Below are positions 7,396 through 51,552 of a stretch of 64,000 nt of DNA, one piece after another (positions within the stretch are counted from its first letter, which is position 1; each line of letters begins with the position of its first letter). The position numbers and the translations under genes are program-made. The notes under the pieces were generated by a model. The model had not been told where the DNA came from. It saw only the letters and a list, made by a program, of their open reading frames with translations, and did not search any database. The DNA comes from Shigella phage vB_SdyM_006, in the sequence record MK295204. The stretch is one strand, 5' to 3'.

Positions 7396-7420
7396 AGCCC
7401 GGGAAACCGGGCTATTTTAT
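7396..7420 (+). terminator. terminator after major capsid gene
   Basis: AGCCCGG-GAAA-CCGGGCT followed by ATTTTATT. Confidence 0.7.
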
Positions 7421-8765: not shown

Positions 8766-8806
8766 GGTAATTTATTACCTTTTTTGGGAACTTCGGTTCC
8801 CTTTTT
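8766..8806 (+). terminator. tandem terminators after gene 24
   Basis: GGTAA-TTTA-TTACC + TTTTTT, then GGGAAC-TTCG-GTTCCC + TTTTT. Confidence 0.75.
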
Positions 8807-8807
8807 A

Positions 8808-9371
8808 TTAGAAAAAATCATCTAATGTAAACTCTTTATATCCTATCATTTCTTTGAATTCGCACATCACTATTGGGTTATATAAATTATAAGTCTTTAT
8901 CCCTAAATAACGTGCTAGATAAACAGCTGTTCTTGTCCCTCCAGAAACATTCCCATATTTATCCTCAGGTGCCCAAAATATAACTGAATCAACAGGATTT
9001 TCTAAAGTAGGTGTTAATATTTGCATACAATTTCTACATTGAAGATGTTTAACAGTTTTAGAAACACTGTCTAATTTAGGATAAAATCTTCTTATAATAT
9101 TAGCGGCTTTTTCTTGGATTTCGTCATTAAAGTCTGTAAATATATGAACACCATTCCCAGAATAGTGATTATTGAACCCCTGGTGAGGAATAATAACACA
9201 TTTATTTTCAGATGAGTATTTCTTCATAAACAAATAATCACTCCCAGGCGCTCCTCCTGATGTTCCTAGCACTCCTAAATTAGAAATATATTCTCCACCA
9301 CTTATTAAAATATTAGATAAACGACTTGGTATTTTTCTTGACCCTATTAAAGCTACAGAATTTTTAACCAT
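8808..9371 (-). CDS. SLOG/DprA-like Rossmann-fold protein
   Basis: N-terminal pattern LIGSRKIPS...GTSGGAPGSD and C-terminal GGTRTAVYLARYLGIKTYNL resemble the DprA/LOG/YpsA (SLOG) glycine-rich nucleotide-binding loops; motif-level call only. Confidence 0.45.
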   Translation of the reverse strand: MVKNSVALIGSRKIPSRLSNILISGGEYISNLGVLGTSGGAPGSDYLFMKKYSSENKCVIIPHQGFNNHYSGNGVHIFTDFNDEIQEKAANIIRRFYPKLDSVSKTVKHLQCRNCMQILTPTLENPVDSVIFWAPEDKYGNVSGGTRTAVYLARYLGIKTYNLYNPIVMCEFKEMIGYKEFTLDDFF

Positions 9372-9380
9372 GCTAACCTC

Positions 9381-9400
9381 AAAAAGGACCCGAAGGTCCT
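9381..9400 (-). terminator. hairpin terminator 14 nt upstream of SLOG-like gene start
   Basis: AGGACC-CGAA-GGTCCT with T-run on minus strand. Confidence 0.55.
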
Positions 9401-9405
9401 TTAAT

Positions 9406-14620: not shown

Positions 14621-14645
14621 AAAATGGGACCGTAAGGTCCCATTT
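14621..14645. terminator. bidirectional terminator between plus-strand island gene and gene 54
   Basis: TGGGACC-GTAA-GGTCCCA flanked by A-run and T-run. Confidence 0.7.
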
Positions 14646-15560
14646 TCAAATTAATCTTGTTACAGCTCCTATTCCTCCTCCAGCACCACCTAATCTTGTT
14701 AAATTTCTTAATGAAGAGCTTAAAGAGTTTTCTTCTGAAATTGTATCTATGGCACCAATTGCTTTTGATTCTAACCAATCAAGAGCTGCTTGCCTACCGA
14801 CAGAACCTACCTGCATCACCCTGTATGCGAATGTAACATCAAAAACAGCAATAGTATTATTATCTTCATATGAAAGTTCAGGAGCACCTACCGACATAGG
14901 AACACACCCTGTGAACATGGCAACAGTATGTGGAAGACCGTTTCTATTGTGTAAATTAACCTGGATATCGGCTTCAACATCTATAGGTAAAGCACGTAGT
15001 CCTGTGATTGGGTCTTCAACTGAATTCACCCAATCTTGCATAGCTCGATAATTACTTGCTTCTGAATCCATCCTAAACGAAATTATCAACGGGTCATATT
15101 CTCTAGATAGAACTTTTATATTAGGTGAATTATGATTTTTATCCATCTCATAAGATAGTCTGTTTTCTGGTAATTTGACAGAATAAACCATTAACCCAGA
15201 TGTTGGAAATGCCATATTAAAGAAATCTAATAGATAAGTCCCTACTTCAAATTCTCCTAATAATGATTGAACCACACGATTAGACATGGCTCCTAAAAGA
15301 TATTTAGAAACACCAGATTTTCTCACTAGTTTTTGAGTACCAGCAACAACTAGACTTGATACTGCACTAGTTACATCATTTTGAGATATTCCAAGAAAAT
15401 CTGTATCTATAGGTAAATTGTTAAACAAAAAACCACCAAAATTATCTAAAAGCTCATTAGTTTTTGATGATGGGGCTGTGGCAAAAACAACACTAAACAT
15501 GTTTGTTCTTTGGAAGTCAAGATTGACAGCTTGGCTTTTAAATTCTTCTAATGTATACAT
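14646..15560 (-). CDS. 54: baseplate tail-tube junction protein
   Basis: 304 aa; last gene of the 51-27-28-29-48-54 hub series, matching T4 order and length (320 aa). Confidence 0.75.
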   Translation of the reverse strand: MYTLEEFKSQAVNLDFQRTNMFSVVFATAPSSKTNELLDNFGGFLFNNLPIDTDFLGISQNDVTSAVSSLVVAGTQKLVRKSGVSKYLLGAMSNRVVQSLLGEFEVGTYLLDFFNMAFPTSGLMVYSVKLPENRLSYEMDKNHNSPNIKVLSREYDPLIISFRMDSEASNYRAMQDWVNSVEDPITGLRALPIDVEADIQVNLHNRNGLPHTVAMFTGCVPMSVGAPELSYEDNNTIAVFDVTFAYRVMQVGSVGRQAALDWLESKAIGAIDTISEENSLSSSLRNLTRLGGAGGGIGAVTRLI

Positions 15561-21318: not shown

Positions 21319-21697
21319 AATGAATGTTTTATATTCTGACTTAGACCCTAAAATGGAAAAAGGCTGGGATAAAGACCTGCATAAAGTCGTAGGAGATAGG
21401 GCTGTCAAAAATTCTATTCTAGGAATAATTAGTACTAGGAAAGGGTCTAGACCCTTTGACCCAGAATTTGGGTGTAATATAACAGACCAATTATTCGAAA
21501 ATATGAGTCCATTAATAGAAGACACTATAGAGCGATCTATAGTTTCGGCTATTAAAAATTATGAGCCAAGAGTACAAAGATTAAAAGTTTCTGTTACTGC
21601 ATTGTATGATTCAAATTCTATAGTTGTAGATATTATTTTTTCTATTGTAGATAATCCAGACACATTAGAACAGATAAAAGTTCAATTATCAAAATAG
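21311..21697 (+). CDS. 25: baseplate wedge protein (lysozyme-like fold)
   Basis: 128 aa; blocks LYSD-DP-M, TRKGSRPFDPEFGC and NYEPR--L-V match T4 gp25. Confidence 0.9.
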   Translation: MSKMNVLYSDLDPKMEKGWDKDLHKVVGDRAVKNSILGIISTRKGSRPFDPEFGCNITDQLFENMSPLIEDTIERSIVSAIKNYEPRVQRLKVSVTALYDSNSIVVDIIFSIVDNPDTLEQIKVQLSK

Positions 21698-21936
21698 TTT
21701 ACTATAGTTATTAATTTATTACTTAATAGTTATATATAATATATAAAGAACTTAATAAAATAATAAAAATTCTGGAGCTGCGCTCCAGATTTCTTTAGAA
21801 ATAGTAACATATAGTTATTAATTTATTACTTAATAGTTATATAGAATATACTATACTTTTAATAAATTAATTTACTAGAGTTACTATTAATAGGCTATTA
21901 TAATAAAATGGTTATAATGAATCATTTGGAGGAACT
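21698..21936. repeat. composite AT-rich intergenic repeat element, copy A (gp25/uvsY)
   Basis: Contains two copies of ATAGTTATTAATTTATTACTTAATAGTTATATA plus a stem-loop; near-identical modules at 58498..58703 in swapped order. Confidence 0.8.
21772..21788 (+). terminator. stem-loop inside composite repeat, downstream of gene 25
   Basis: CTGGAGC-TGC-GCTCCAG. Confidence 0.4.
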
Positions 21937-22720: not shown

Positions 22721-22746
22721 AAAAGACGAGGGTTACTCGTCTTTTT
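22721..22746. terminator. bidirectional terminator between uvsY.-2 and uvsW.1
   Basis: AAAAGACGAG-GGTTA-CTCGTCTTTTT. Confidence 0.65.
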
Positions 22747-25231: not shown

Positions 25232-26056
25232 ATGAGTATAGTACTAAAATTAACACCAGAGAACCCTAAAATTACTATAGGAGAATCTCAAGAATTCACC
25301 ATGACTACAGAGAATCAAACAGATGAGACTCTAAAATATGAATGGTATATTAATGAAGACATATATGAAGCCACAAATAAAAATATGACATATACACCTG
25401 ATAAATCAGGTGAATTTATTATAAAATGTAAAGTATCTTCTTTAGGATTAGAAGGGGAAACCGTTTTAGGCGAAGAATCCACCACTTTAACTGTAAATCT
25501 TAAAACTATAACCGATTTGACGACAAATATTACAGGCCCAAAAGAAGCAGAATATGGCGAAGAATTTGAACTTGTTGTAAATGCTGAAACTACAGCAGAA
25601 TCTCCTAAATATACATATAAATGGTCTAGTGGTGAAACTACAAAAAAAATAAAGGTAATTGAATCTGAAGAAGGTGAAAAAACTTTTACATGTACAGTAA
25701 CATGTAAATCAACTAATTATGAACCCGCTACTTCAACATCAGAACATAAAGTTTCTATATCAAAACCCGTAGTTCCTGAACCAGATCCGTCTTGTGAATC
25801 ATGTAGATATATTCATCCTTTAGACCATAGAGAATCAGCATATTTATGGGTAGGATACTGGGTACTAGAAGAAATAGAAAAAGCCGTGGAAGAAGGAATT
25901 GATTGGAAGAAGCCAGATGATACTGATCTAAAATATAAATGTGATTTGAAGACCCTCGCATTTATGTTAGAAAAATACCCTAATGTAGATGTACAAGAAT
26001 CAAGAAATGGATATATCTTATCTAAAGACGATATTGAAAATGGGGTTATTTACTAA
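25232..26056 (+). CDS. Ig-like domain protein, possible Hoc-like capsid decoration
   Basis: 274 aa; two roughly 90 aa repeats with Ig-like beta-strand patterns plus a C-terminal domain; position next to the inh-like gene. Confidence 0.4.
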   Translation: MSIVLKLTPENPKITIGESQEFTMTTENQTDETLKYEWYINEDIYEATNKNMTYTPDKSGEFIIKCKVSSLGLEGETVLGEESTTLTVNLKTITDLTTNITGPKEAEYGEEFELVVNAETTAESPKYTYKWSSGETTKKIKVIESEEGEKTFTCTVTCKSTNYEPATSTSEHKVSISKPVVPEPDPSCESCRYIHPLDHRESAYLWVGYWVLEEIEKAVEEGIDWKKPDDTDLKYKCDLKTLAFMLEKYPNVDVQESRNGYILSKDDIENGVIY

Positions 26057-26060
26057 ACAA

Positions 26061-26419: not shown

Positions 26420-28483
26420 TTAAATAATAAATTTTTCTGGGACAAAAGTAAGATCAACAGCTGTTGATAATAATTCTAGCCCTTTTTGACTAATTTTACC
26501 AGTATTTTCTTTTAAGAATTCTTTAAACCCAATTTTTTCGATTTTTCCTTCAGATAAAAACTTATTTCCGTCAATAAGTTCGCTTTCATCTAGTAATTCT
26601 GGATCCACTACAGATGTTTCTACTAATATTGGTCTATTAAATTCTATATCACGAGCGTTTTCATAACCGTGGATAGAATGAATCTTAAGAGCTAAACCTC
26701 TAGGTAAAATCACCTCGCATTCACTAGAGTATTTTGACATATTACCAGGAATAATAACATTGACTTTATGTGCACCTTTAATAGTTATACCCATAGAAAT
26801 GTTAATATCTGTTTTCTTAGTTGCTTTCTTACCATTAACGGCTACACCAATATTTTTTGGTGTCATAACTGTTGATATAACATCATCGAATGTTTCGGAT
26901 TCAAAAGTTACTGTAGTCGCGTTAGGTTTAATATTATCAAGAACATCATTTCGTTCCCCAAAAATAATTGGAGCTAATGAAGTCGAAATATAATTAGGAA
27001 AATATAATGTTTTATTTTTAGCAGCTTTTTCTACGTCGGCATAAGGTAATTTTTGTGCTCTATATAAAATAGTTCCTTTTTCTAACTTGGTTCCTTTTTT
27101 GAAGGCCCCATCTAAGACAGGAATTTTGTTTTCATACACAGATTTTAAACTTTTATCTTTACCAAGCAAAAAGTCGTTCATTTCTTCATATCCACGTAAA
27201 GCATAATCTGTGATAACTTTTCGCTCTTCTTCTGTTAAATCCATTTCTGTTTCGGTTCTAAATAACTCTTCTAAAGGAGTATAGAAAACATTTCTGTTTA
27301 AAGCAGAGATACAGCCTCTTAAAGCTCTAGTCTTAGCCACATTATCGTCAGGTCCATATGTTTCTAAATCTTCGGCTATTTTTTTGTAAACATCCATAGC
27401 ATTATTAGAAGTTTTGAGCGCATTGTTAATTATCAATATATACGGTTTTGCTAATTTATATTTTTCTTCACTAGATAAATGATAAAAATTTTCAACACCA
27501 TACCCAGATATGCGTTCTAAAGAATCTAATAAAAATCTAGCTTCTAGATCTGATTCTTCTTCACTCACGGCCGAATTTATTTTATCTAAAAACACAGATT
27601 TAGATTCATCAATTTTATTAAGGACATTTTTATGAACTAATGCAATTTTTGTAGAATCACTTTGGACAATAGGAGGATTATCTTGTAGTTCAATATATTT
27701 TCTTCTTCCTTCTTCAGAATAATTTTCTAAGTCTTCTGGTTTAGAAACACCATACATTGCTGATAATAATTCACGTCTAGAAACTTTAGTTTTTGAAATG
27801 ACAGATCGTTCACTTCTTGTGTTTTCTTGTGCTGCAATACTTCCTGCAATGGCTTCTAATTTAGACACTTGCTTGCCAGTTTTGTCATTGATATACACAT
27901 CACCTACTTTAGAATCGACTTTAGTATATAAGTCAGAATCAATACCAGGAATCCCAGCGATGTCTTCTAAAGGTCTGTTTTTACGATATATTAAAACATA
28001 AGCATGTTTACCTGTAAATTGATACAAATCTTCTAAGACAACAAATTTACCACCAGTACGTTGCATAGCCAGACGTTTGATTATTCTTTGTAATGTCTTT
28101 TCTTGGCCTTTCATTTTTTTAGCAGGGAATCTAAATAAAACTGCGTCCATTTTAAGTTTTTTAACTTGTTCGTATACAGTGTCAAAAATAGTATTCAATG
28201 CCCCAATAGGGTCTGAGCCTAAACCATTTCTTAATTCTGCTGCATTACCATTTTTAGACAAACTCATCAAAAACACTTGAACAAATTTATCACCTTGCTT
28301 TACTGCTTTTAATGCATCGCCTTTAGATAAATAAGACACCATTCTAACTAAAAGATTGTCATTTCCAGGAACACTGACATTCCATAATTGAGGGACCTTA
28401 GCCCTTTTATTAAGATTAATAGCTTTATATTGAGCTATTTCTGAATCAAAAACCTCATTTAAATTAATTTCATTTAATTCCAT
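26420..28483 (-). CDS. alt: Alt-like ADP-ribosyltransferase (packaged, R-S-ExE class)
   Basis: 687 aa vs 682 in T4; ART triad in order: LYRAQ (Arg), ISTSL (Ser-Thr-Ser), ECEVILPRG (Glu-x-Glu); TATAAATA late promoter upstream. Confidence 0.8.
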   Translation of the reverse strand: MELNEINLNEVFDSEIAQYKAINLNKRAKVPQLWNVSVPGNDNLLVRMVSYLSKGDALKAVKQGDKFVQVFLMSLSKNGNAAELRNGLGSDPIGALNTIFDTVYEQVKKLKMDAVLFRFPAKKMKGQEKTLQRIIKRLAMQRTGGKFVVLEDLYQFTGKHAYVLIYRKNRPLEDIAGIPGIDSDLYTKVDSKVGDVYINDKTGKQVSKLEAIAGSIAAQENTRSERSVISKTKVSRRELLSAMYGVSKPEDLENYSEEGRRKYIELQDNPPIVQSDSTKIALVHKNVLNKIDESKSVFLDKINSAVSEEESDLEARFLLDSLERISGYGVENFYHLSSEEKYKLAKPYILIINNALKTSNNAMDVYKKIAEDLETYGPDDNVAKTRALRGCISALNRNVFYTPLEELFRTETEMDLTEEERKVITDYALRGYEEMNDFLLGKDKSLKSVYENKIPVLDGAFKKGTKLEKGTILYRAQKLPYADVEKAAKNKTLYFPNYISTSLAPIIFGERNDVLDNIKPNATTVTFESETFDDVISTVMTPKNIGVAVNGKKATKKTDINISMGITIKGAHKVNVIIPGNMSKYSSECEVILPRGLALKIHSIHGYENARDIEFNRPILVETSVVDPELLDESELIDGNKFLSEGKIEKIGFKEFLKENTGKISQKGLELLSTAVDLTFVPEKFII

Positions 28484-28513: not shown

Positions 28514-28521
28514 TATTTATA
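28514..28521 (-). promoter_or_regulatory. late promoter TATAAATA for alt
   Basis: Exact octamer on minus strand 30 nt upstream of alt ATG 28483. Confidence 0.6.
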
Positions 28522-28527
28522 CCAAAA

Positions 28528-28550
28528 AGGAGACCGAAGTCTCCTTGTTT
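28528..28550 (-). terminator. hairpin terminator (AGGAGAC-CGAA-GTCTCCT family)
   Basis: 7-bp stem, CGAA loop, T-run on minus strand; between cassette gene and alt late promoter. Confidence 0.6.
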
Positions 28551-28563
28551 TTATATTATTTAT

Positions 28564-28773
28564 TTATTCACCAATTTCTTCTAAGAAATTCTCATAATCA
28601 GTTGGGAATCTTTTCCAAAACTTTTTAATTTTTTGTTCTTTATTCTTGCATTCTGCCAATGAAATCATTAAACCGTTATCAGAATCAGATTCAACTCGTG
28701 TTAATGTTAAACCTAATTCAGAAAGTGCTGTTAAGTGATTTTGTGCCAATACATATAAATATAAATCAAACAT
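28564..28773 (-). CDS. hypothetical early protein (cassette-driven)
   Basis: Start placed at ATG after GGAGTATATT within the conserved early promoter-leader cassette; 69 aa. Confidence 0.45.
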   Translation of the reverse strand: MFDLYLYVLAQNHLTALSELGLTLTRVESDSDNGLMISLAECKNKEQKIKKFWKRFPTDYENFLEEIGE

Positions 28774-28813
28774 AATATACTCCGTTGTTTCCGTGTGTTG
28801 TTTCAATATGTAT

Positions 28814-28842
28814 ATAATAACATGTCTACAGCAAAAGTAAAC
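28814..28842 (-). promoter_or_regulatory. early promoter (GTTTAC-N17-TATTAT), cassette copy
   Basis: Minus-strand GTTTAC (plus 28837-28842), 17-nt spacer, TATTAT (plus 28814-28819). Confidence 0.6.
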
Positions 28843-28861
28843 ATGTTATTGTGGCTTTTTA

Positions 28862-29098
28862 TTAAATAATTCTAGCTATCAATGCAGAAGTATTAATACT
28901 AACAGTAAATTCCATTGGCGTTTCATCTTCTTCAGAACTAATTACCATTGAATGGATTTCGGTAACACCAGATACGGATAAAACTCTATCTTCAATAATA
29001 GTTATATGTGAAGAATATTCAAAAGGACCATATGGGTCTCCATCTAATCTAGATGTATCTTTAAGCATTTTTAACAATTCAGCACTTGATAATTTCAT
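28862..29098 (-). CDS. hypothetical early protein (cassette-driven)
   Basis: Start placed at ATG after GGAGTATATA in the second copy of the cassette; 78 aa. Confidence 0.45.
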   Translation of the reverse strand: MKLSSAELLKMLKDTSRLDGDPYGPFEYSSHITIIEDRVLSVSGVTEIHSMVISSEEDETPMEFTVSINTSALIARII

Positions 29099-29135
29099 TA
29101 TATACTCCATTTTCGTATGTTGTTTCAATATGTAT

Positions 29136-29164
29136 ATAATAACATGTCTACAGCAAAAGTAAAC
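29136..29164 (-). promoter_or_regulatory. early promoter (GTTTAC-N17-TATTAT), cassette copy
   Basis: Minus-strand GTTTAC (plus 29159-29164), 17-nt spacer, TATTAT (plus 29136-29141); directly follows a terminator hairpin. Confidence 0.6.
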
Positions 29165-29185
29165 AAAAAAGAGCCTTTCGGCTCT
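29165..29185 (-). terminator. hairpin terminator upstream of cassette promoter
   Basis: GAGCC-TTTC-GGCTC followed on minus strand by TTTTTT then GTTTAC. Confidence 0.6.
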
Positions 29186-29387
29186 AAATAATTTTTGATA
29201 AATCATCTTGTATTGCTAAGATTTTATGAAAATCTGATTCTCTTATAGGACAAGACTTATCTAACTTAAATGATATTAAAGAATTCATAAAGATAGATTC
29301 TATTTGTTCTTCTAAATCATCTATTAAAATATTCTTCTGGTGATTGTCCAAAGATTTCATAAAAGTCATTTGCCTCTTGTTTATCAA
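29184..29387 (-). CDS. hypothetical small ORF overlapping ligase 3' end
   Basis: 67 aa ORF; overlaps the ligase gene by at least 44 nt in another frame, so doubtful. Confidence 0.2.
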   Translation of the reverse strand: MINKRQMTFMKSLDNHQKNILIDDLEEQIESIFMNSLISFKLDKSCPIRESDFHKILAIQDDLSKII

Positions 29388-30789
29388 GACGTCTCATTTT
29401 AACACGTGGTAAAAATAAACTATATGTTTCTCGTCCATCAACTTTTTGAGCTGCATTACATACACCCGAGATAATCATACCGACAAGTTTACCTTTCTTA
29501 TGAAGATCCCATAATAAACGACGGTCTAATTCATGACGTTTATCGAGTGGAATCCAGATTTTTTCTTTTGAACCTTTTACCTTTTCGTAATCTTTATCCT
29601 TAAAACCAGAACCACAGTCAACTAAAATAGTCCCATCTCTAGACCTTAAATTGACACCACCTAATTTTTCAGGGTCTTTAGAATGTGGATACGCACCAAT
29701 AATTTCTAAATCAAAATCTTTTTCTTCTTTAAATTTTACTTGGTCACAAGTACGTCCATCAGACCAAACACCAAGTTTATTTTTTAGAATAATACCTTCT
29801 AACTTCATATCAACATATTTTCTGTAAATAACTTGGGCTTCTTCTAAAGTCTTAACTTCTTCTGATGGAATTAATTCTAAACGTCCTGCTTTTTTAGTAA
29901 TTAATTCTAAATTTTTTAACCTTTCTTTGTAAGGTTTATTAATTTCTGAATTATCAGTCTGTGTACCTTGTGTAACTTCATAGTTAATTAGATCCCAGAC
30001 CTGGAATTTAACACAATCTGCTTCGGTTTTTGAAATGGTTCCTTGGATTGATTTATTTGCAATACCGTTACCTTCTTCTCTAGAAGCAACAATATTTTCT
30101 TCTTCGTCTTCATCAAAGAATAAATCTAGACCTTGTTTTGTTGATTTAGGAAAATAAACTAGTTCACCATCAAGAACAACGTTTCCTAATCCTTCAGTGA
30201 TAGATACAATTTCTTCTTTTAGCAAATCTAGACCAAGATATTCGCTACCAGAACGAGAATATAAATTAACTTCCCCGTCTACAACTTCGGCAAAACATCT
30301 AGCACCATCTGCTTTAAGCTGAGCTAATGCTGGGAATTTAATTTTAGATACATTAGCTTTACTAAAAGGCGCTGCTAAAAACTGCGGCTGCTTTGGTAAT
30401 AAATTTTCCCATACTTTGTTTGGAATACTTCTTCCTACACCACATTCCAAGTCACGTTTGACAATGCGTTTAATTAATGCTGCATCTTTAGGGCATAAAC
30501 TTTCTAATACATCTTTTAAAGCAGCAATTGCAGCATGTCCTGTTAAAACCCGTTCACCTAAAACATTTTCTAAAAAATCTAAAGCGTCACGAAGTGTTTT
30601 AGATTCGGTTTTAGGTTCATATTCTGGAATCTTTTTAATATGGAATTTGACTCTTTGAGAATATGTTAATCTAAACACATCTTTTACTAATAAATTGTTT
30701 TTATATTTTAAAAGAATATTTTCTTTTTCTTTTAATGAATCCGTAGAAGCTAGTTCTACAATAATATCGTATACCATACCTTTTTCCAT
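29317..30789 (-). CDS. 30: ATP-dependent DNA ligase
   Basis: 490 aa vs 487 in T4; adenylation motif FPALAQLKADGARCFAEV, plus RDLECG and GLEGIILKN blocks. Confidence 0.93.
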   Translation of the reverse strand: MEKGMVYDIIVELASTDSLKEKENILLKYKNNLLVKDVFRLTYSQRVKFHIKKIPEYEPKTESKTLRDALDFLENVLGERVLTGHAAIAALKDVLESLCPKDAALIKRIVKRDLECGVGRSIPNKVWENLLPKQPQFLAAPFSKANVSKIKFPALAQLKADGARCFAEVVDGEVNLYSRSGSEYLGLDLLKEEIVSITEGLGNVVLDGELVYFPKSTKQGLDLFFDEDEEENIVASREEGNGIANKSIQGTISKTEADCVKFQVWDLINYEVTQGTQTDNSEINKPYKERLKNLELITKKAGRLELIPSEEVKTLEEAQVIYRKYVDMKLEGIILKNKLGVWSDGRTCDQVKFKEEKDFDLEIIGAYPHSKDPEKLGGVNLRSRDGTILVDCGSGFKDKDYEKVKGSKEKIWIPLDKRHELDRRLLWDLHKKGKLVGMIISGVCNAAQKVDGRETYSLFLPRVKMRRLDKQEANDFYEIFGQSPEEYFNR

Positions 30790-30798
30790 TTATAGTCC

Positions 30799-31434
30799 TT
30801 ATTTTATACTATTTAATGATTCTTCTAAGTCTGGTAAAATGGATTCAAAATCATACCAGTCTTTAACATTGATAATAGGACAATCTGGCAAATCACGTTG
30901 TCCACGTGGCATATGAATCAAAGGTAGTCTCGAAATAACTTTATGACAATCTTCAAGATTATGAGCCAAATCATCAACAAAACATAAAAGATTTTTAGTG
31001 TGTTTAACTTTAACATCTAAATAATGAGGAGTTTTAGATTCACCATAATTCACAAGTAAAATATCACTAAATGCATTAGGAAATAAAGAATTCAAATTAT
31101 ATAACCGATTAAACAATGCCTGGTTAGTAGTTCCTAAAGCTGTGATAGCAACAAATTCATACTTATGTTTAAGCCTATTAATGACTTCAATGGCATCAGT
31201 ATATCCAGTTAGATACTTAATATATTTTGAGTTATTGTATTCCGTCATTAATTTTAAGCCAAGTTCTTCATTACAACGGAACATTTCGCCTGGCGACATA
31301 AAAACATTTTCTGTGATAACTCTTAAAATATTTGATGTATCAATACCATAATCTTGTGCAAAATAAGGAAGTCCAGATGCCCACTGGACTAAAATGCCAT
31401 CAACGTCAGTTAAAATAACAGGTTTTACTTGCAT
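30799..31434 (-). CDS. HAD-superfamily phosphatase, nucleotidase-like
   Basis: N-terminal HAD motif I VILTDVDGILV; 211 aa. Confidence 0.55.
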   Translation of the reverse strand: MQVKPVILTDVDGILVQWASGLPYFAQDYGIDTSNILRVITENVFMSPGEMFRCNEELGLKLMTEYNNSKYIKYLTGYTDAIEVINRLKHKYEFVAITALGTTNQALFNRLYNLNSLFPNAFSDILLVNYGESKTPHYLDVKVKHTKNLLCFVDDLAHNLEDCHKVISRLPLIHMPRGQRDLPDCPIINVKDWYDFESILPDLEESLNSIK

Positions 31435-31877
31435 TATGCATCCTCATATTTAATTGCCATAAGAGCCTTTTTAGTGAATTCGTAGATGTCAATATTTTTA
31501 ACACCTTGGCTTAAAATAGATTCCACTGTTTTATCAAGAACTGGCTTAATAAAAGGTCCTTGAAGATTCATTGTTCCAGTTCTATCTTTAAATGCGATAA
31601 CGAATTTACGATCGACCCAATTATTTTTGGGTTCAAGATTTTCTATTTTTTCAAAATAACCATGTTCATCAACGTCAATAATAAACGCTACTGTAAAATC
31701 GTCTTCGGTTAAAGTTTCGTCACCACATTTAAGTTTTTTGACATGTCCACTTTCGTCAAGTTCAATAACTTTAAATGGGCTATTTGAGATAGCATTAGCA
31801 ATACGTTCATTAGAATAATTTTCATCAACAAATCCGTCAATGTCAATTAATTTATACCAACCATTTAATTCAAACAT
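31434..31877 (-). CDS. hypothetical protein (paralogue of next gene)
   Basis: 147 aa; shares Y-x-LI, YS-x-E-I and NPFKV-x-L motifs with 31885..32337. Confidence 0.45.
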   Translation of the reverse strand: MFELNGWYKLIDIDGFVDENYSNERIANAISNSPFKVIELDESGHVKKLKCGDETLTEDDFTVAFIIDVDEHGYFEKIENLEPKNNWVDRKFVIAFKDRTGTMNLQGPFIKPVLDKTVESILSQGVKNIDIYEFTKKALMAIKYEDA

Positions 31878-31884
31878 AGTATTC

Positions 31885-32337
31885 TCACTTAAAAGTAATA
31901 GATTGGGTGATTTCAGCAGTTTTATCTAAAGTATACATTTCAACTTTACCAGTAGGATTTTTTGTTAAAAATGCTTCGATACTTTTATGTGCTGATTCTT
32001 CATCTAGAGGAACTGAAGAAGTTTCTACACCGTTTAAAATTTGGACTAAAACTACACGGGCTGACGGGACTACAACTTCATTAAAATACTCCACTTCATA
32101 TTTAGAAATCACCACTGTTAATTGAGAGTCAAAATCAGAAGGTGTGTATTCTTTTCCGTTAATTGAAATTAAAACAACATCACGATTGCCAGGCCCAAGA
32201 GCTAAAACTTTAAAAGGATTTTTCCCAATAAGGTTATAAATTTTTTCATTATATGCCGAGTACTCTTTAAACTCGTGTTCATTGATAAGTTGATAAGATT
32301 TACCGATTTCAAATTCAAAAGCTGTTTTAGTTTTCAT
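31885..32337 (-). CDS. hypothetical protein (paralogue of previous gene)
   Basis: 150 aa; paralogue of 31434..31877. Confidence 0.45.
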   Translation of the reverse strand: MKTKTAFEFEIGKSYQLINEHEFKEYSAYNEKIYNLIGKNPFKVLALGPGNRDVVLISINGKEYTPSDFDSQLTVVISKYEVEYFNEVVVPSARVVLVQILNGVETSSVPLDEESAHKSIEAFLTKNPTGKVEMYTLDKTAEITQSITFK

Positions 32338-32338
32338 A

Positions 32339-32659
32339 TTAGGACCTTATTTTTAAGATTGTTTTCATTGCAGCAACTAATGGTTTTTTATCCTCAACCC
32401 AGTCATCACAACATAAATTTTCATTATCGAAATTATTGTATCTAGAACCTAGACAATGTAAACCGATAAATGTATCATTTGATGTTTTTGTTACACTGAT
32501 ATCATGGTCTAACATTAAGACCCAAGCTTGATTAATATTATTACATGGATCAAATTTTAAGCCATTAATATAAACAAATAACTTAAACCCTTGGTTTTCT
32601 ACTGTGTATTCATACCCAAGACTTTTAGCTAGTTCAATATTAATATCAAGTTCAGTCAT
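32339..32659 (-). CDS. hypothetical protein
   Basis: 106 aa ORF with FDPCNN motif; 4-nt overlap with upstream NADAR-like gene. Confidence 0.45.
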   Translation of the reverse strand: MTELDINIELAKSLGYEYTVENQGFKLFVYINGLKFDPCNNINQAWVLMLDHDISVTKTSNDTFIGLHCLGSRYNNFDNENLCCDDWVEDKKPLVAAMKTILKIRS

Positions 32660-33093
32660 AACCGTCTCCTTAAAGATGTCAATATACCACAGAATTCTTG
32701 GTTTGTTAATATAGTTTCGAACTTATTTTCGCATCCTATAGTATGAACTAATGTTTTATCGCCTGTTGCTCTCAGAGCATCTCTGAATGATTTATTCTGA
32801 TTAAACATATGAATATATGCTCTGACTAGTAAACGTTTGTAGGCTTCACTGTGACGATTAATAGGGCATCCATTATACCACATAGTGTCATTTTTCATTT
32901 TAGGACCAGCTAATTTGGCCTTTAATCCATGCAGTTTAAACACTTCAGATTGTTCTTTAGGGTCTTTAATTTTTAATCCTTGTAAAAATCCTTCTATACT
33001 GCCAAAGAGCTGATTGTCCATTTTAAAAGGATGCTCAGCAAAATTACTTAAAGCACATGAAGGCCAAGGGCCTCTAGAATGAATATCAATCAT
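32656..33093 (-). CDS. NADAR-like (YbiA-type) putative ADP-ribose glycohydrolase
   Basis: 145 aa; LSNFAEHPFKMDNQLFGSIEGFLQGLKI aligns with the YbiA core FSNFA-x-PI-x-DG-x3-TSEHYFQAQKF. Confidence 0.55.
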   Translation of the reverse strand: MIDIHSRGPWPSCALSNFAEHPFKMDNQLFGSIEGFLQGLKIKDPKEQSEVFKLHGLKAKLAGPKMKNDTMWYNGCPINRHSEAYKRLLVRAYIHMFNQNKSFRDALRATGDKTLVHTIGCENKFETILTNQEFCGILTSLRRRL

Positions 33094-33107
33094 ATATCCT
33101 CTAAACC

Positions 33108-33130
33108 AAAAAAGGAGACCGGAGTCTCCT
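33108..33130 (-). terminator. hairpin terminator 20 nt upstream of NADAR-like gene start
   Basis: AGGAGAC-CGGA-GTCTCCT with T-run on minus strand. Confidence 0.55.
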
Positions 33131-33137
33131 TAATCAT

Positions 33138-33374
33138 TTATAGTGTCACCAAATCCAAGATACGCTCTATTTGGTCAATAATTGCTTTGCCAGAGTCATT
33201 ATCGTAAACAAACTTTGTTAATGCTATATTTCTTATAGTAGTTGTTTTTGCTAATTCTTTAAGATCGTTATTAAAGAAATAAAGTGCGTCGGCTTCATTG
33301 TCGAAATACTTATTATAAACCTTTTTTTCTTTAACAATTCTGTATACTAAATTATATTGAGTTGATGTTGACAT
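33138..33374 (-). CDS. hypothetical early protein
   Basis: 78 aa; early promoter upstream, hairpin terminator downstream. Confidence 0.45.
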   Translation of the reverse strand: MSTSTQYNLVYRIVKEKKVYNKYFDNEADALYFFNNDLKELAKTTTIRNIALTKFVYDNDSGKAIIDQIERILDLVTL

Positions 33375-33402
33375 TTTAGACCTCCGTTATTAATTGTGAT
33401 CT

Positions 33403-33432
33403 ATAATATCCTTTTTTAAAAGAGAAGTAAAC
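33403..33432 (-). promoter_or_regulatory. early promoter (GTTTAC-N18-TATTAT)
   Basis: Minus-strand GTTTAC (plus 33427-33432) and TATTAT (plus 33403-33408) upstream of gene 33138..33374. Confidence 0.45.
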
Positions 33433-33450
33433 ACTTATTTTCAATAAAAC

Positions 33451-33474
33451 CAAAAAAGGAGACCGAAGTCTCCT
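33451..33474 (-). terminator. hairpin terminator (AGGAGAC-CGAA-GTCTCCT family)
   Basis: Same stem as 28528 copy; T-run on minus strand. Confidence 0.6.
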
Positions 33475-33479
33475 TAAAT

Positions 33480-33623: not shown

Positions 33624-33869
33624 TTATTTCAATGTAACAATATAATGACGAACAGCTTTACGTGCATTAGAACTTAAATGCTTAGCATATTTTAAATTAT
33701 CATTTTCGATAAGCTCTTGGTGAAGATTTTTTTGTTCTGGATTTAAGTGTTTAAAACCTTCAAGAACTTTAAGTGCTTCAGCCAGAACATCGATTGATGC
33801 ACCATAGTTTTCATGGCCATTTTGGAAAGAATTACGTTGGATATCTAAAATTGTTTTTACAAAAGTCAT
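33624..33869 (-). CDS. hypothetical protein
   Basis: 81 aa ORF upstream of gene 31 region. Confidence 0.4.
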   Translation of the reverse strand: MTFVKTILDIQRNSFQNGHENYGASIDVLAEALKVLEGFKHLNPEQKNLHQELIENDNLKYAKHLSSNARKAVRHYIVTLK

Positions 33870-33942: not shown

Positions 33943-34260
33943 TTATTTATACACTGCTGCAATAGATTTATAATGAGCAGTAATAAATTTTATTGGGAAT
34001 TCACTAGCTTTTTTATCATTAAAAACAGTTTCTGGATGAGGAACATTACGCATGTTACCTGTAGGTAAAGGGACCTTATCACCGATCTCAAAATAACCTT
34101 GAGGAACACAATCACCAATGGCATAAATTTCACCATATTGTGGTAATTCACCTTGTTGACGAACACCAATAACAATACCTGAAGCCGAAACTTCTTCGGT
34201 CCCAGCTGATTCTGCTTTTGCTGCTATAATAACGCTTTCACCTAATGCTTTAATATCCAT
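33943..34260 (-). CDS. 31: head assembly co-chaperonin (GroES-like)
   Basis: 105 aa vs 111 in T4; GNMRNVPHP and FITAHYKSIAAVYK align with T4 gp31 (IRNVPHP, FVTCHYKAIPCLYK). Confidence 0.85.
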   Translation of the reverse strand: MDIKALGESVIIAAKAESAGTEEVSASGIVIGVRQQGELPQYGEIYAIGDCVPQGYFEIGDKVPLPTGNMRNVPHPETVFNDKKASEFPIKFITAHYKSIAAVYK

Positions 34261-34589
34261 TAAACCAACCTTAAAATGTCTTCATACTTCATAGAATTAA
34301 CAGAAATAATTGATTCTGTTGTAATAGAACGCCATGCATTAATCTCTGTATCAAATACTCGGATATATGATGGTGTTTTTGTTTCTTTTTCTGTTAAAGG
34401 TTTAGAACTATCTTGTTTAGGATGATGTTCTTCAGGAATAATATCATAATCTAGTGTACAGCGAATAACTCTAATAGAACCATCTTTTTTAGTAAAAACA
34501 ATTTCATTTTTACCATTATGTAGTAAGGTTTTAATTAAAGCAGTTAATTTAGCTTTTCTTTCTTCTGTAAGTTTCATTTTACACCACAA
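34260..34589 (-). CDS. conserved hypothetical protein
   Basis: 109 aa ORF between cd and gene 31. Confidence 0.45.
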   Translation of the reverse strand: MWCKMKLTEERKAKLTALIKTLLHNGKNEIVFTKKDGSIRVIRCTLDYDIIPEEHHPKQDSSKPLTEKETKTPSYIRVFDTEINAWRSITTESIISVNSMKYEDILRLV

Positions 34590-35125
34590 TAGTTAGTTAT
34601 AGTAGACCAATCAATATGATTGAGATTAGAACGCTCATATTTAATAACTTCAATTCCAGAATCTAATAAAATCTGGTCCCATCCAGGAACATTGCGATCA
34701 TATGTTTCTGCATAAACAAGTTTTTTAATACCAGATTGAGCAATCGCTTTAGCACAATCAGGACATGGCGATAATGTTACATACATTGTTCCGCCATCAA
34801 TAGAAATACCATTACGAGCAGCAAAAATAATTGCATTTAATTCTGCATGGATTTCATGTTTAGAAGACCATGCATTATGTTGCTCACGGAATTCCATATT
34901 TAATCCTGTAATAGTTTTAGGACGAGGACCTGGAACAATAATAGGTTTAGTCCAACCTTTTTCTGCTGCATGGTCGCAGCAATTGACGCCACCAGTAGGA
35001 GAACCATTATAACCAGTAGAAATGATTCTTCCACCTTTTTCAATAACAGCACCAACTTTCCAAGAAACACATTTAGATTCTTGAGAAATGATATAAGCAA
35101 GTTGGAGATATGTCGAAGCTTTCAT
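34574..35125 (-). CDS. cd: dCMP deaminase
   Basis: 183 aa; N-terminus MKASTYLQLAYIISQESKC-SWKVGAVIEK-GRIISTGYNGSP nearly identical to T4 Cd; zinc motifs HAELNAI and PCPDCAKAI. Confidence 0.93.
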   Translation of the reverse strand: MKASTYLQLAYIISQESKCVSWKVGAVIEKGGRIISTGYNGSPTGGVNCCDHAAEKGWTKPIIVPGPRPKTITGLNMEFREQHNAWSSKHEIHAELNAIIFAARNGISIDGGTMYVTLSPCPDCAKAIAQSGIKKLVYAETYDRNVPGWDQILLDSGIEVIKYERSNLNHIDWSTITNYCGVK

Positions 35126-41768: not shown

Positions 41769-42175
41769 TCTTTTTCCTTATGTTGTGTATTCCAATCAGG
41801 GTTAAACATTTTAATAAAAATTGGCTCTTCAAGGTCCATAGTACTTATTTCCATTTGCCCTAAATCATTTTTAGCCACTAAGTCAAAACACTGACGATAA
41901 TAAAATATTACAGATTTACCTTGATTTAAAGAATCATAGATATTTTTAGATTTAGTGGAATCTGAAGTCCAAGTTTGCCTGTTCATGGAAGTTCTGTAAT
42001 AATTTATCCTCTTTCTAAGATTTTTAGTTTTACCAATGTAAACTAATTGTCCATCAACTTCTATAGCGTATATTACATTTCTTTTTGTTTTAAGCTCTTT
42101 TGGAATAGGTGATATTTCATTATTGTCTAAATTGAGCTCTAAATATTTTACAAATCCGAATTGTTTAAATGACAT
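41765..42175 (-). CDS. denA: endonuclease II (GIY-YIG family)
   Basis: 136 aa, same length as T4 DenA; GIY-YIG core VIYAIEVDGQLVYIGKTKNLRKRINYYR. Confidence 0.85.
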   Translation of the reverse strand: MSFKQFGFVKYLELNLDNNEISPIPKELKTKRNVIYAIEVDGQLVYIGKTKNLRKRINYYRTSMNRQTWTSDSTKSKNIYDSLNQGKSVIFYYRQCFDLVAKNDLGQMEISTMDLEEPIFIKMFNPDWNTQHKEKE

Positions 42176-42182
42176 AAAAATA

Positions 42183-42198
42183 AAGGGCCGAAGCCCTT
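42183..42198 (-). terminator. hairpin terminator between nrdB and denA
   Basis: AAGGGC-CGAA-GCCCTT, T-run on minus strand. Confidence 0.55.
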
Positions 42199-42202
42199 CT
42201 CC

Positions 42203-43375
42203 TTATAAGTATTTCTTAAATCCATCTAAAACTTCTGGATTAATATCTTCATCAATTTGAGAAATTAAATAAGAATCGATTTCAACTTCTTGAGGTGCTG
42301 ATTGAACACCTTCAGAATTTAGATATTTAGACATCCAGACTAAAGGATTTTTAAGACCTTTATATGGACTATTTAATCCAGCATGACGCATTCGGATATC
42401 AGTAATATAGTCTACATAGCCTTTAAGATTTGTATGGTTTAAACCTGAGACAGTCCCAAATTTAAACAGATCATCTACCCAATCTTTTTCTTGTTGATTT
42501 ACTTCTAAGAATAATGTAGTAGCTTCTTCTTCAAGTTCATCTGCGATTTTTTTCCAGTGTTCGCCTTCTTTACCAGATTGCCATTGACGAATCATATATT
42601 GAGTGCCTTTAAGATGTAATTGTTCATCACGGGCAATCAACTTCATGATTTTGGTATTGCCTTCAAGAACACCTTTGTTTTCGAAGAAATTAAATGTACA
42701 CGCAAAAGATACATAAAACCGAATAGCTTCTAAAGCATTAATGGCATGCATACATAGATATAGTTTACGCATGGCATCATCTAAATCTTTTTCATATCGA
42801 TTCCAAGCGCCAATTAATTGGAATCCTGTTGGGTCTCGTTGTTCTTCTTCCTCAATAATGTCTTTAATATTTTCGTATTCTCTGATAGCCTTAATTAAAG
42901 AATCATAATATTTTGTGATTGATTCTGCACGAGCCATAATAGCATCATCAAGAACAATTTCGTCAAATTCTTTTGATGGGTCTTCATAAAGATTACGCAT
43001 AATATGAGTATAAGACCTAGAATGAATTGTTTCGCTAAATGACCATGTTTGAATCCATGTTTCTAATGAGACATCAGAACAAATAGACAATAAAGCTTCT
43101 GATGGACCACGTCCTTGAATAGAATCAAGAAGTGTTTGATATTTTAAGTTATTAGTAAAAATTCTTTTTTCGTGTTCAAGTAATTTGTCGTACTGTGATT
43201 TGTCTGTCATTAAATTAACTTCTTCTGGCCGCCAAAAAAAGCTTAAAGCTTTTTCAGTCAAATCTTCAAAGACTCGATGTTTTACTGTTTCGTAACGTGC
43301 AATACCTGTTGATTCACCAAAGAACATTGGCTGAGACATGATGTCGATTTGTTCTTTATTAAAAATAGTTGCCAT
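42203..43375 (-). CDS. nrdB: ribonucleotide reductase small subunit (class Ia), uninterrupted
   Basis: 390 aa vs 388 in T4; contiguous ORF, so no intron. Confidence 0.9.
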   Translation of the reverse strand: MATIFNKEQIDIMSQPMFFGESTGIARYETVKHRVFEDLTEKALSFFWRPEEVNLMTDKSQYDKLLEHEKRIFTNNLKYQTLLDSIQGRGPSEALLSICSDVSLETWIQTWSFSETIHSRSYTHIMRNLYEDPSKEFDEIVLDDAIMARAESITKYYDSLIKAIREYENIKDIIEEEEQRDPTGFQLIGAWNRYEKDLDDAMRKLYLCMHAINALEAIRFYVSFACTFNFFENKGVLEGNTKIMKLIARDEQLHLKGTQYMIRQWQSGKEGEHWKKIADELEEEATTLFLEVNQQEKDWVDDLFKFGTVSGLNHTNLKGYVDYITDIRMRHAGLNSPYKGLKNPLVWMSKYLNSEGVQSAPQEVEIDSYLISQIDEDINPEVLDGFKKYL

Positions 43376-43476
43376 TTTAATCCTTAATTTTTCTTTTTAC
43401 AAGGGTCCCATCTTTTACTGCTTTGTCATAAGCAATTTTAATTAATCGTAGACGTTCCACTTTAGAATTTCTAATT

Positions 43477-43510
43477 TTGTTAAAATCTATCTCGGACGAA
43501 TCCGAGATAG
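43477..43510 (-). terminator. terminator after nrdA
   Basis: 10-bp stem CTATCTCGGA-CGAA-TCCGAGATAG then T-run on minus strand. Confidence 0.65.
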
Positions 43511-43515
43511 TTGTA

Positions 43516-47143: not shown

Positions 47144-47995
47144 CTATACACTGAAAGGGTATTTAATAGCAGGGTGATATTGATAATCTTGTACTTCAAA
47201 ATCATCTACAGTGACCCAGGTTTCAATATCTTCTAATGATCTGATATTATCATTAATAATAAGTTTAGGTGCATTAAACGGCGTCCTAGACACATGCTCT
47301 GGGACTAAAGATAATTGGTCTTCATAGATATGGGCATTTGTTATCTTATGAAACACTTTACCAGGTTTATTTGCTGTAATCTGGGCCATTAAATGTAAAA
47401 GCACATAACACTGAATCATATTAAAATTTAAACCTAATGGGACATCACATGATCTTTGGTATGAAGTTAAATATAAAGTCCCATTAACGAGAGAAAAATT
47501 ATGGGTATGCATACAAGGACGTAAACAACCTAAGTCAAATTCTCCTGGATTCCAGAACGTTAGGATTTCTCCACGATCATCAGTTCCTTCACTTAAATTA
47601 TCATAGATTTTTCTGAGTTGGTCAATAGTGCTATTAGGTCCTTGCCATTGTCGTCCTTGAACACCATAAACACGGCCCATATCGTCTTCACCTTTGCGAT
47701 GAGGGTTATTTAGCCATGCTTGATTTTCATTAGCGTTTGCATTCCATGTATTACAACCAATTTCACGAAATTGCGCTGCATTGTCGTAACCACGAAGATA
47801 TCCTAACAGTTCAGCAATAGCAGCTTTATAAAAGCTTTTACGAGTTGTATCAATTGGGAATTCAGAATATTCTAGGTCGGCATTAATAATAACACGACAA
47901 AATTTTCCAGTTCGTTTATTATATACGTCTTGGCCTTCATTATAAATCTTTTTTAATAATTGTTGATACTGATTCTTTTCTAAGATCTTTTCCAT
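47144..47995 (-). CDS. td: thymidylate synthase, uninterrupted
   Basis: 283 aa; active-site region [11 protein letters not shown] and C-terminal [10 protein letters not shown]; single contiguous ORF. Confidence 0.95.
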
Positions 47996-50572: not shown

Positions 50573-50601
50573 ATAATATCACGCTAAAAATCTTTGTAAA
50601 C
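50573..50601 (-). promoter_or_regulatory. early promoter (AAATAAATGTTTAC-N17-TATTAT)
   Basis: Minus-strand GTTTAC (plus 50596-50601), 17-nt spacer, TATTAT (plus 50573-50578); follows the gene 32 terminator. Confidence 0.55.
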
Positions 50602-50620
50602 ATTTATTTTCTATAAAACC

Positions 50621-50643
50621 AAAAAAGGAACCCGAAGGTTCCT
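50621..50643 (-). terminator. terminator after gene 32 (AGGAACC-CGAA-GGTTCCT)
   Basis: Hairpin then T-run on minus strand, directly followed by an early promoter. Confidence 0.65.
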
Positions 50644-50655
50644 TTTATTAAGAAA

Positions 50656-51552
50656 TTAGATGAGTTCGTTTAAAATATCATCAACTGACTGGTCAGTCAT
50701 TGAGCTTTCACCCAAATCAACTGGTTCGTTAAATGAAGACATTTGACTAGAAAAATCATCTTGAGCAGATAAATTATCTAATTCGGCATCAATATCAGCA
50801 GAAGCATTTGATGCAGAACCTGCAACCATTCCAACACCCATAACTTGTTTAAACTTAGTTTCTAACTCAGCATAAGGTTTAAACTGGTCTTTAGCAACGA
50901 TAGCTTGTAAATCTACACATTGATCAATAATTGATTTTTGAACAGCTTCATCATCAATATTAGGAATTTCTGATTGTGCATAGAACTTACAGTCATCATA
51001 ATTAGGGAAATTACTTACTTTTTTAACTTTAAGAGCAAAGTTAGCACCTTCAAAAGGACAGAAAATATTTACTGGTGTCTCACCCATTTCGATATCAACG
51101 TTTGCCATAGAATCAATCTTATCCATGATTTTTTGACCGAAACGATATTTAAATACTTTACCTTCATTTTCAGGAGCACTTGGGTCTTTAACAACTAAAA
51201 TATTAGCCCAATAAGAATGTTTACGTTTAATCAGTTTATATTCTTCTGGATTAGTATTGTATGAGTCTTTTTCTGTTAAATATTTACACACTGGGCATGA
51301 ATCATAATCGCCGTGTGTAGAACTACAATTATTGATATACCATTTACCATTTTTCTTAAAACCATGATTTGTTAGTTTAACAAATGGAGTAGCATTATCA
51401 TCTTTAGCTGGTAAAAAACGAATTACTGCGTTACCATTACCTGCGGCATCAGTTTTTAATTTCCATTCGTTTTTATCTTCGTTTTGAAAACCACCACCTT
51501 TTAAGCCAGCTAATTGTTCTTGAAGTTCTGTTACTGATTTACGTTTAAACAT
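50656..51552 (-). CDS. 32: single-stranded DNA-binding protein
   Basis: 298 aa vs 301 in T4; zinc ligands in [15 protein letters not shown], acidic C-terminal tail. Confidence 0.93.

Follow-up and report, generated by a model that had tools for sequence, protein, structure and literature searches.

The 64,000-nucleotide stretch of Shigella phage vB_SdyM_006 (sequence record MK295204) that was analyzed here as a whole, hereafter the window, carries a family of near-identical hairpins between its genes. These hairpins are very probably the Rho-independent (intrinsic) terminators of a T4-like phage, acting on minus-strand transcripts. The analysis centered on five sites, named by their first positions as 28527, 33112, 33456, 50623 and 9383 (Table 1). 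An initial annotation, made from the letters alone, had listed four of them together with a related hairpin at the fifth, and had called them a family of terminators. That designation is upheld by the U-tracts, the positions past stop codons and the sense bias of the hairpins, but the strand described was the wrong one and the true strand is the opposite. The element is an ordinary one of a known kind, an intrinsic terminator of the T4 type with a stable tetraloop, which at some sites forms part of a PeSL cassette.

Tetraloop hairpins past the ends of minus-strand genes

Two exact copies of the sequence GGAGACCGAAGTCTCC are present, at 28529-28544 and 33458-33473, and a third copy, at 33114-33129, has a single mismatch in the loop. 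When the window was searched for this sequence with up to three mismatches allowed, 3 matches were obtained against 0.07 expected, and none of 100 shuffled sequences gave three. Terminator-like sites in general were also enriched in the region (21 vs. 6.2 ± 3.2 in shuffles), and on these two counts a chance origin of the hairpin copies was ruled out. Read on the minus strand, the repeated element is AAGGAGAC-UUCG-GUCUCCUU followed by UUUUGG. Related hairpins lie at 50623-50646 and 9383-9402, where the plus-strand readings are AAAAGGAACC-CGAA-GGTTCCTTTT and AAAGGACC-CGAA-GGTCCTTT, respectively. The stem-loops themselves were thus borne out, as exact or one-mismatch copies and their relatives.

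The loop had initially been read as GAAG, which is incorrect. It is CGAA on the plus strand and UUCG on the minus strand, and it sits on a stem of 8-10 bp (8 bp in the GGAGAC copies) with 4 G-C pairs. All five tetraloops are closed by a C-G pair, as cUUCGg at 28527, 33456, 50623 and 9383 and as cUCCGg at 33112, so that each site is a C(UNCG)G stable tetraloop hairpin. The predicted folding energies range from -11.5 to -14.8 kcal/mol, with z scores of -2.4 to -4.3. On the minus strand, 5-6 consecutive U lie 3' of GUCUCC or GGUUCC at every site (5/5). The hairpins begin 3-17 nt past the stop codons of minus-strand open reading frames (ORFs), the genes around them are all on that strand, and a terminator scan likewise calls the hairpins on the minus strand. 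A stable G/C stem-loop, a 3' U-tract and a sense position past the end of a gene, the attributes of an intrinsic terminator, are therefore all present. The A-run and T-run that had been reported on either side of each stem were found in part. The plus-strand A-run is real and corresponds to the U-tract in the RNA of the minus strand; a plus-strand T-run is seen only at 28527 and, within the stem, at 50623, and is absent at 33112 and 33456. A scan of the whole window at the Rfam gathering thresholds matched no family.

The U-tract is followed by GG (UUUUUUGGU) in about half of the terminators, for example at 28520-28526, 33105-33111, 33449-33455 and 50615-50622, and in many of those of phage phiP4-3. 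The same hairpin core in other phages does not show this GG, which may help RNA polymerase to pause at the end of the U-tract.

Conservation of loop, strand and position

The window shares 98-99% identity with phages phiP4-3 and SJ_PmiM and about 83-87% with PM2 and Pm5461. To judge by sequence, it is of the T4-like Proteus phage type (Straboviridae, Bragavirus).

The intergenic tetraloop hairpins follow a strand rule. On the strand of the gene that ends at the site, nearly all those of the window have a loop of the UNCG or GNRA type: GAAA at 1566, 7396 and 29170, UACG at 2096, UCCG at 33112, and UUCG at 8786, 9383, 28527, 33456, 42183, 43487 and 50623. The exception is a hairpin between convergent genes at 26060, the loop of which is AAUU. 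In the complete phiP4-3 genome, such loops were in the sense orientation in 19 of 22 unidirectional intergenic tetraloop hairpins and in the antisense orientation in none (binomial p = 4e-6), while the intragenic hairpins of that genome showed no strand bias of their loops. A bias that exists between genes and is absent inside them argues that the selected object is the RNA of the coding strand. A DNA-level palindrome or a protein operator was also considered and was ruled out by the strand-specific loops (19:0) and the co-varying stems.

The same hairpins were compared with those of Pm5461, where the flanks are about 83% identical. At 43487, compensatory changes convert the stem from UCGGA/UCCGA to CUGGC/GCCAG and the loop from UUCG to UCCG. 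The loop also changes at 33112 and at 50623 (UUCG to UACG), and all three loop changes remain within UNCG. At 7396, 28527 and 29170 the stems are unrelated and a hairpin is nevertheless retained; the counterpart of 7396 is a UUCG hairpin. A further hairpin, between convergent genes at 14621-14646, has the loop GUAA on the plus strand here and UUAC in Pm5461 on an identical stem, the GNRA loop having swapped strands.

Terminators after genes 23 and 32 and upstream of alt occupy conserved positions in T4-like genomes; the one after gene 23 was predicted in 6/6 genomes compared and the one upstream of alt in 5/6 (Nolan et al. 2006, PMC1524935). Two of the four hairpins listed initially lie at such positions, after gene 32 and before alt. 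In eight other T4-like phages, of E. coli, Klebsiella, Salmonella, Acinetobacter, Aeromonas, Enterobacter and Vibrio, a hairpin also follows gene 32. The stems differ, the loop is UUCG or UACG in 5/8, and a GTTTAC promoter usually comes next. The elements share with the C(UUCG)G terminators of T4 the G/C-cored stem, the UUCG loop closed by C-G, the U-tract, the intergenic sense location and the positions after gene 32, before alt and after gene 23. Nothing of substance differs; host and genus do (Proteus, Bragavirus), and GG after the U-tract is frequent here. C(UUCG)G tetraloop hairpins were reportedly described in the intercistronic regions of phage T4 by Tuerk et al. in PNAS in 1988.

The possibility that the family is private to this genome was rejected, the exact 16-mer with its U-tract being common in unrelated viral contigs. 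The 16-mer occurs in at least 120 unrelated IMG/VR contigs; among the 120 listed, T is found in the UUCG orientation at each of positions +3 to +7 past the stem in 94-103 contigs, and the stem extensions vary. GGAGAC-UUCG-GUCUCC is, on this sequence evidence, a terminator core that recurs in unrelated phages, and identical copies need not share descent. Nor is it restricted to the early region, as had been proposed, for phiP4-3 has a fourth copy amid its late baseplate genes, oriented as they are. Other records carry matching annotation. The hairpin after gene 32 of E. coli phage NBG1 has the same core and is annotated as a terminator, and the record of Morganella phage MP1 labels the orthologous hairpins on either side of the 78-aa ORF as rho-independent terminators, with promoters. 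In the Pm5461 record (NC_028762), the "terminator" feature at 121614-121853 has the same coordinates as the coding sequence gp182 and looks like an annotation slip; the actual hairpin, AAGGGC-UUCG-GCCCUU, lies just 3' of that coding sequence, before alt.

Genetic contexts and alternative roles

As RNA polymerase exits a gene, the nascent RNA would fold into the 8-10 bp G/C-cored stem with its unusually stable C(UUCG)G tetraloop (UCCG in one copy), and the stem and the following run of 5-6 U would release the transcript. Remaining at the 3' end, the hairpin should also shield the upstream message from 3' exonucleases. What lies beyond the hairpin differs among the sites. An early promoter comes next at 33456, 50623 and 29170, where the hairpin would belong to a PeSL cassette that keeps small genes apart as insulated units. 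At 28527 the late promoter TATAAATA comes next, before alt; the Pm5461 record has an annotated promoter of 8 nt ahead of alt, and in that phage the motif TATAAATA comes after the orthologue of this hairpin. At 33112 and 9383 the hairpin is followed by a Shine-Dalgarno sequence (SD) and AUG. The initial annotation was right that these two adjoin start codons, and no promoter was found between the 33112 hairpin and the AUG of the gp30.3/NADAR-like gene. Because the genes after 33112 and 9383 have no promoter of their own, they would depend on read-through, and these copies would act as leaky attenuators.

The short hairpin-AUG gap raises the possibility that 33112 and 9383 are mainly 5'-terminal stabilizing hairpins or processing boundaries, with an endonuclease cutting the AU-rich RNA upstream and the hairpin then capping the 5' end and slowing decay. 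The spacing is regular as well as short, SD and AUG following within 12-20 nt of the stem at 33112, 9383, 1566 and nine more phiP4-3 sites. Moreover, the SD is unpaired in the predicted folds, and the arrangement at 9383 is kept in Pm5461 despite an unrelated upstream flank. However, the hairpins carry canonical U-tracts immediately past stop codons, a feature that a 5' cap structure could do without, and identical hairpins elsewhere precede promoters, where a 5' role is impossible. We regard this as an improbable main function. It would apply only where hairpin and AUG are separated by no promoter, as at 33112 and 9383, and there it is at most secondary.

The GGAG within the stems had been pointed out as the target of the T4 endoribonuclease RegB, which would cut there and so inactivate early mRNAs or process them. 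The three GGAGAC copies do contain GGAG, and the nearest relative, phiP4-3, encodes a RegB homologue (phiP43_172, PF10715, E=1e-51), the gene lying outside the 64-kb window. As in T4 (Durand et al. 2006, PMC1702504), the tetranucleotide falls in an intergenic region of early transcripts in a lineage that encodes the enzyme. The RegB/S1 target is, however, 11 nt of single-stranded RNA, GGAGRAYARAA, with an invariant GGA (PMC1702504; PMC3014915). Here GGAG is fully paired within the 8-bp stem in both the minimum-free-energy and centroid structures. The A-rich 3' half is missing; the 3' context, GGAGACUUCGG, agrees with 6/11 of the consensus and has C at positions 6 and 9, where it is excluded or extremely rare. 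Nor do 50623, 9383, the majority of hairpins in the class or the Pm5461 counterpart of the alt-site hairpin contain GGAG. Furthermore, 16 structured GGAG-containing RNAs of T4 were resistant to RegB in experiments, among them intergenic stem-loops such as terminators, often with UUCG tetraloops (PMC1702504; PMC3014915). The stems were rejected as RegB targets on pairing, consensus mismatch, lack of conservation and this published resistance, and a processing role of this kind is scarcely credible. Single-stranded SDs beside some hairpins are more plausible targets, and cleavage there may leave the upstream fragment capped by a hairpin. After the phiP4-3 hairpin at genome position 125720 (about 25738-25760 of the segment analyzed), the SD GGAGAAUAAAAUG is an exact match to the T4 RegB/S1 consensus GGAGAAUAAAA.

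The remaining alternative places the function in the DNA. A PeSL consists of a stem-loop, a TTTACW-N17-TAYWAT promoter a short way downstream of it, and then SD and ATG, and the unit is repeated among the small ORFs of hyperplastic regions (PMC4122927). The stem-loops, tested in lacZ fusions, were described as effective terminators, and for RB49 and phi1 it was demonstrated that PeSLs recombine and that mini-circles arise (PMC2839356). The present cassettes resemble these (Arbiol et al. 2010, PMC2839356; Comeau et al. 2014, PMC4122927) in the order of stem-loop, TTTACW-N16/17-TAYWAT early promoter, SD and ATG, and in being repeated between the small ORFs of a variable region, where they flank a single small ORF as direct repeats. 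The complete architecture was found at 33456, 50623 and 29170. Of the five sites, by contrast, 28527 is followed by a late promoter and neither 33112 nor 9383 by any, which makes them "half" PeSLs at best. Another difference is that recombination here is suggested by sequence repeats, whereas mini-circles are known in the earlier systems.

Within 28.4-33.7 kb, several similar copies lie between small ORFs, as a 31-nt repeat present three times and a 56-nt promoter repeat present twice. The two close copies of the 31-nt repeat flank the 78-aa ORF, 344 bp apart, and are 97% identical (Table 1). The 56-nt repeat (28788-28843 and 29110-29165, 96% identical) comprises an early promoter and 5' leader before two small ORFs. 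A tandem gene duplication was considered as its source and rejected, the two downstream ORFs having no detectable similarity. Overlapping BLAST pieces had hinted at a possible duplication near 21675-21731, where only AT-rich microrepeats were found nearby. In Pm5461 an extra promoter and gene (gp175) lie exactly between the orthologue of the 33112 hairpin and gp30.3. In Morganella and Providencia relatives (Gualtarvirus), hairpin-plus-promoter cassettes lie on both sides of the same ORF with two stems that are unlike each other, while both are GGAGAC here, suggesting local homogenization. The alt site may be an example of hairpin exchange, the GGAGAC stem of the window being replaced in Pm5461 by AAGGGC-UUCG-GCCCUU, identical to the nrdB/denA hairpin.

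One proposal drawn from these observations is that the GGAGAC cassettes, besides terminating, are recombination-active ends of mobile ORF modules, the 31-nt repeats excising the 78-aa ORF as a mini-circle and hairpin "alleles" being exchanged by gene conversion. This addition is tentative and rather unlikely; PeSL-type recombination in this lineage fits the repeats, on thin evidence. The stronger form, in which the hairpins matter mainly as recombination modules that swap small ORFs and termination is a by-product, is very improbable. The strand-specific UNCG/GNRA loops and compensatory stem changes show selection on the RNA, an early promoter accompanies only three hairpins of the window, and the same 16-mer arises in unrelated phages, so that identity need not come from copying. 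Hairpins were also looked for as rearrangement breakpoints relative to phiP4-3, the closest relative, and none was found. The window and phiP4-3 differ structurally by a homing-endonuclease ORF and by the I-TevI-bearing td intron, as well as in a segment upstream of nrdA that has been replaced and a tail-fibre segment that has diverged; none of these differences is bounded by hairpins and most involve homing endonucleases.

Intrinsic termination remains the preferred reading, and several points weigh against it. Termination, its efficiency and any effect on RNA stability are deduced from sequence rather than from transcript ends of this phage. An efficient terminator at 33112 or 9383 would silence the next gene, so these two must be partial terminators or mainly RNA stability or processing elements. 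The covariation at the gene 32 site, where 4/6 stem pairs are altered on both sides among seven tetraloop cores, is a partly circular count in that the stems had been picked as hairpins beforehand. Finally, the link of the hairpins to gene shuffling is weak, the sole hairpin-bounded indel being gp175 of Pm5461. If these structures are terminators, the near-identity of the copies would have two sources, namely the recurrent terminator core and a local event at the pair around the 78-aa ORF, which appear from their sequences to have been duplicated or homogenized.

Neighboring features and value for annotation

The coordinates of the hairpins, promoters, repeat and surrounding genes are collected in Table 1.

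Table 1. Features of the window discussed in the text. Positions are counted from the first nucleotide of the window; hairpin and promoter sequences are read on the strand given.
Feature	Position	Strand	Remarks
Candidate terminator hairpin 28527, AAGGAGAC-UUCG-GUCUCCUU + UUUGG	28527-28546	-	17 nt past stop of 69-aa ORF, upstream of alt; -13.5 kcal/mol, z -4.3
Putative T4-type late promoter for alt, TATAAATA	28514-28521	-	begins 6 nt after 28527 hairpin
Candidate terminator hairpin 33112, AAGGAGAC-UCCG-GUCUCCUU + UUUUGG	33112-33131	-	6 nt past stop of 78-aa ORF, 18 nt before gp30.3/NADAR-like AUG
Candidate terminator hairpin 33456, AAGGAGAC-UUCG-GUCUCCUU + UUUUGG	33456-33475	-	4 nt past stop of 44-aa ORF
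Putative early sigma-70-type promoter, TTTACT-N17-TATTAT	33403-33431	-	after 33456 hairpin; PeSL-type cassette driving 78-aa ORF
Candidate terminator hairpin 50623, AAAAGGAACC-UUCG-GGUUCCUUUU + UUGG	50623-50646	-	9 nt past stop of gene 32
Putative early promoter, TTTACA-N16-TATTAT	50573-50600	-	after gene 32 terminator; PeSL-type cassette
Candidate terminator hairpin 9383, AAAGGACC-UUCG-GGUCCUUU + UUGAGG	9383-9402	-	3 nt past stop, 11 nt before DprA-like AUG, no promoter
Candidate terminator hairpin, AGAGCC-GAAA-GGCUCU + UUUUU	29170-29185	-	runs straight into early promoter TTTACT-N16-TATTAT (29136-29163)
Hairpin of the same class, AAGGGC-UUCG-GCCCUU	42183-42198	-	between nrdB and denA; identical in Pm5461
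Hairpin, CUAUCUCGGA-UUCG-UCCGAGAUAG	43487-43510	-	after nrdA
Hairpin, GGGAAC-UUCG-GUUCCC + UUUUU	8786-8801	+	after late gene 24 (capsid vertex)
Hairpin, AGCCCGG-GAAA-CCGGGCU	7396-7413	+	after gene 23 (major capsid)
31-nt direct repeat	33103-33133		97% identical to 33447-33477, 77% to 28518-28548
alt	26420-28483	-	
DNA ligase	29317-30789	-	
gp30.3/NADAR-like gene	32656-33093	-	AUG at 33093
78-aa ORF	33138-33374	-	between hairpins 33112 and 33456
rIII	33624-33869	-	
gene 31	33943-34260	-	
cd	34574-35125	-	
gene 32	50656-51552	-	
DprA-like gene	8808-9371	-	AUG at 9371

The hairpin at 42183-42198 (region 42165-42215, minus strand) sits between an AAGGAG Shine-Dalgarno sequence and the AUG of denA (42175), and the predicted fold covers both. 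On this model it could bring the SD near the AUG in a split-SD arrangement, or it could sequester SD and AUG. Split-SD arrangements occur at T4 genes 38 and 25. At 22721-22745, between uvsW.1 and a converging gene, a hairpin has an A-run and a T-run on both sides; a bidirectional terminator at this position is reported to be conserved in T4 and five relatives (PMC1524935).

The differences from the closest relatives were located as follows. The nrdA-nrdB spacer (43377-43515) is 138 bp long with a UUCG hairpin, where phiP4-3 has a homing-endonuclease ORF of 630 bp. No intron interrupts td in the window (47457-47462), and the td of phiP4-3 has an intron of about 1 kb with I-TevI. At 31847-31884 SJ_PmiM is about 600 bp longer and has two additional small ORFs, SJ_105 and SJ_106. 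The junction here consists of a 38-bp direct repeat, which fits the loss of the segment through short-repeat recombination.

Both kinds of element are long established in T4-type phages, the UUCG-tetraloop terminators since 1988 and the PeSL cassettes since 2010, and the finding opens no new question. Were the recombination proposal true, PeSL-type shuffling would be extended to Bragavirus and to terminators coupled with late promoters. The value of the present finding is for annotation, as the closest records, phiP4-3 and SJ_PmiM, have no terminator annotation. The hairpin sites would mark the boundaries of transcription units in the alt-ligase-rIII-gene 31 region and after gene 32, and the gp30.3/NADAR-like and DprA-like genes are flagged as genes that may be expressible by terminator read-through only.

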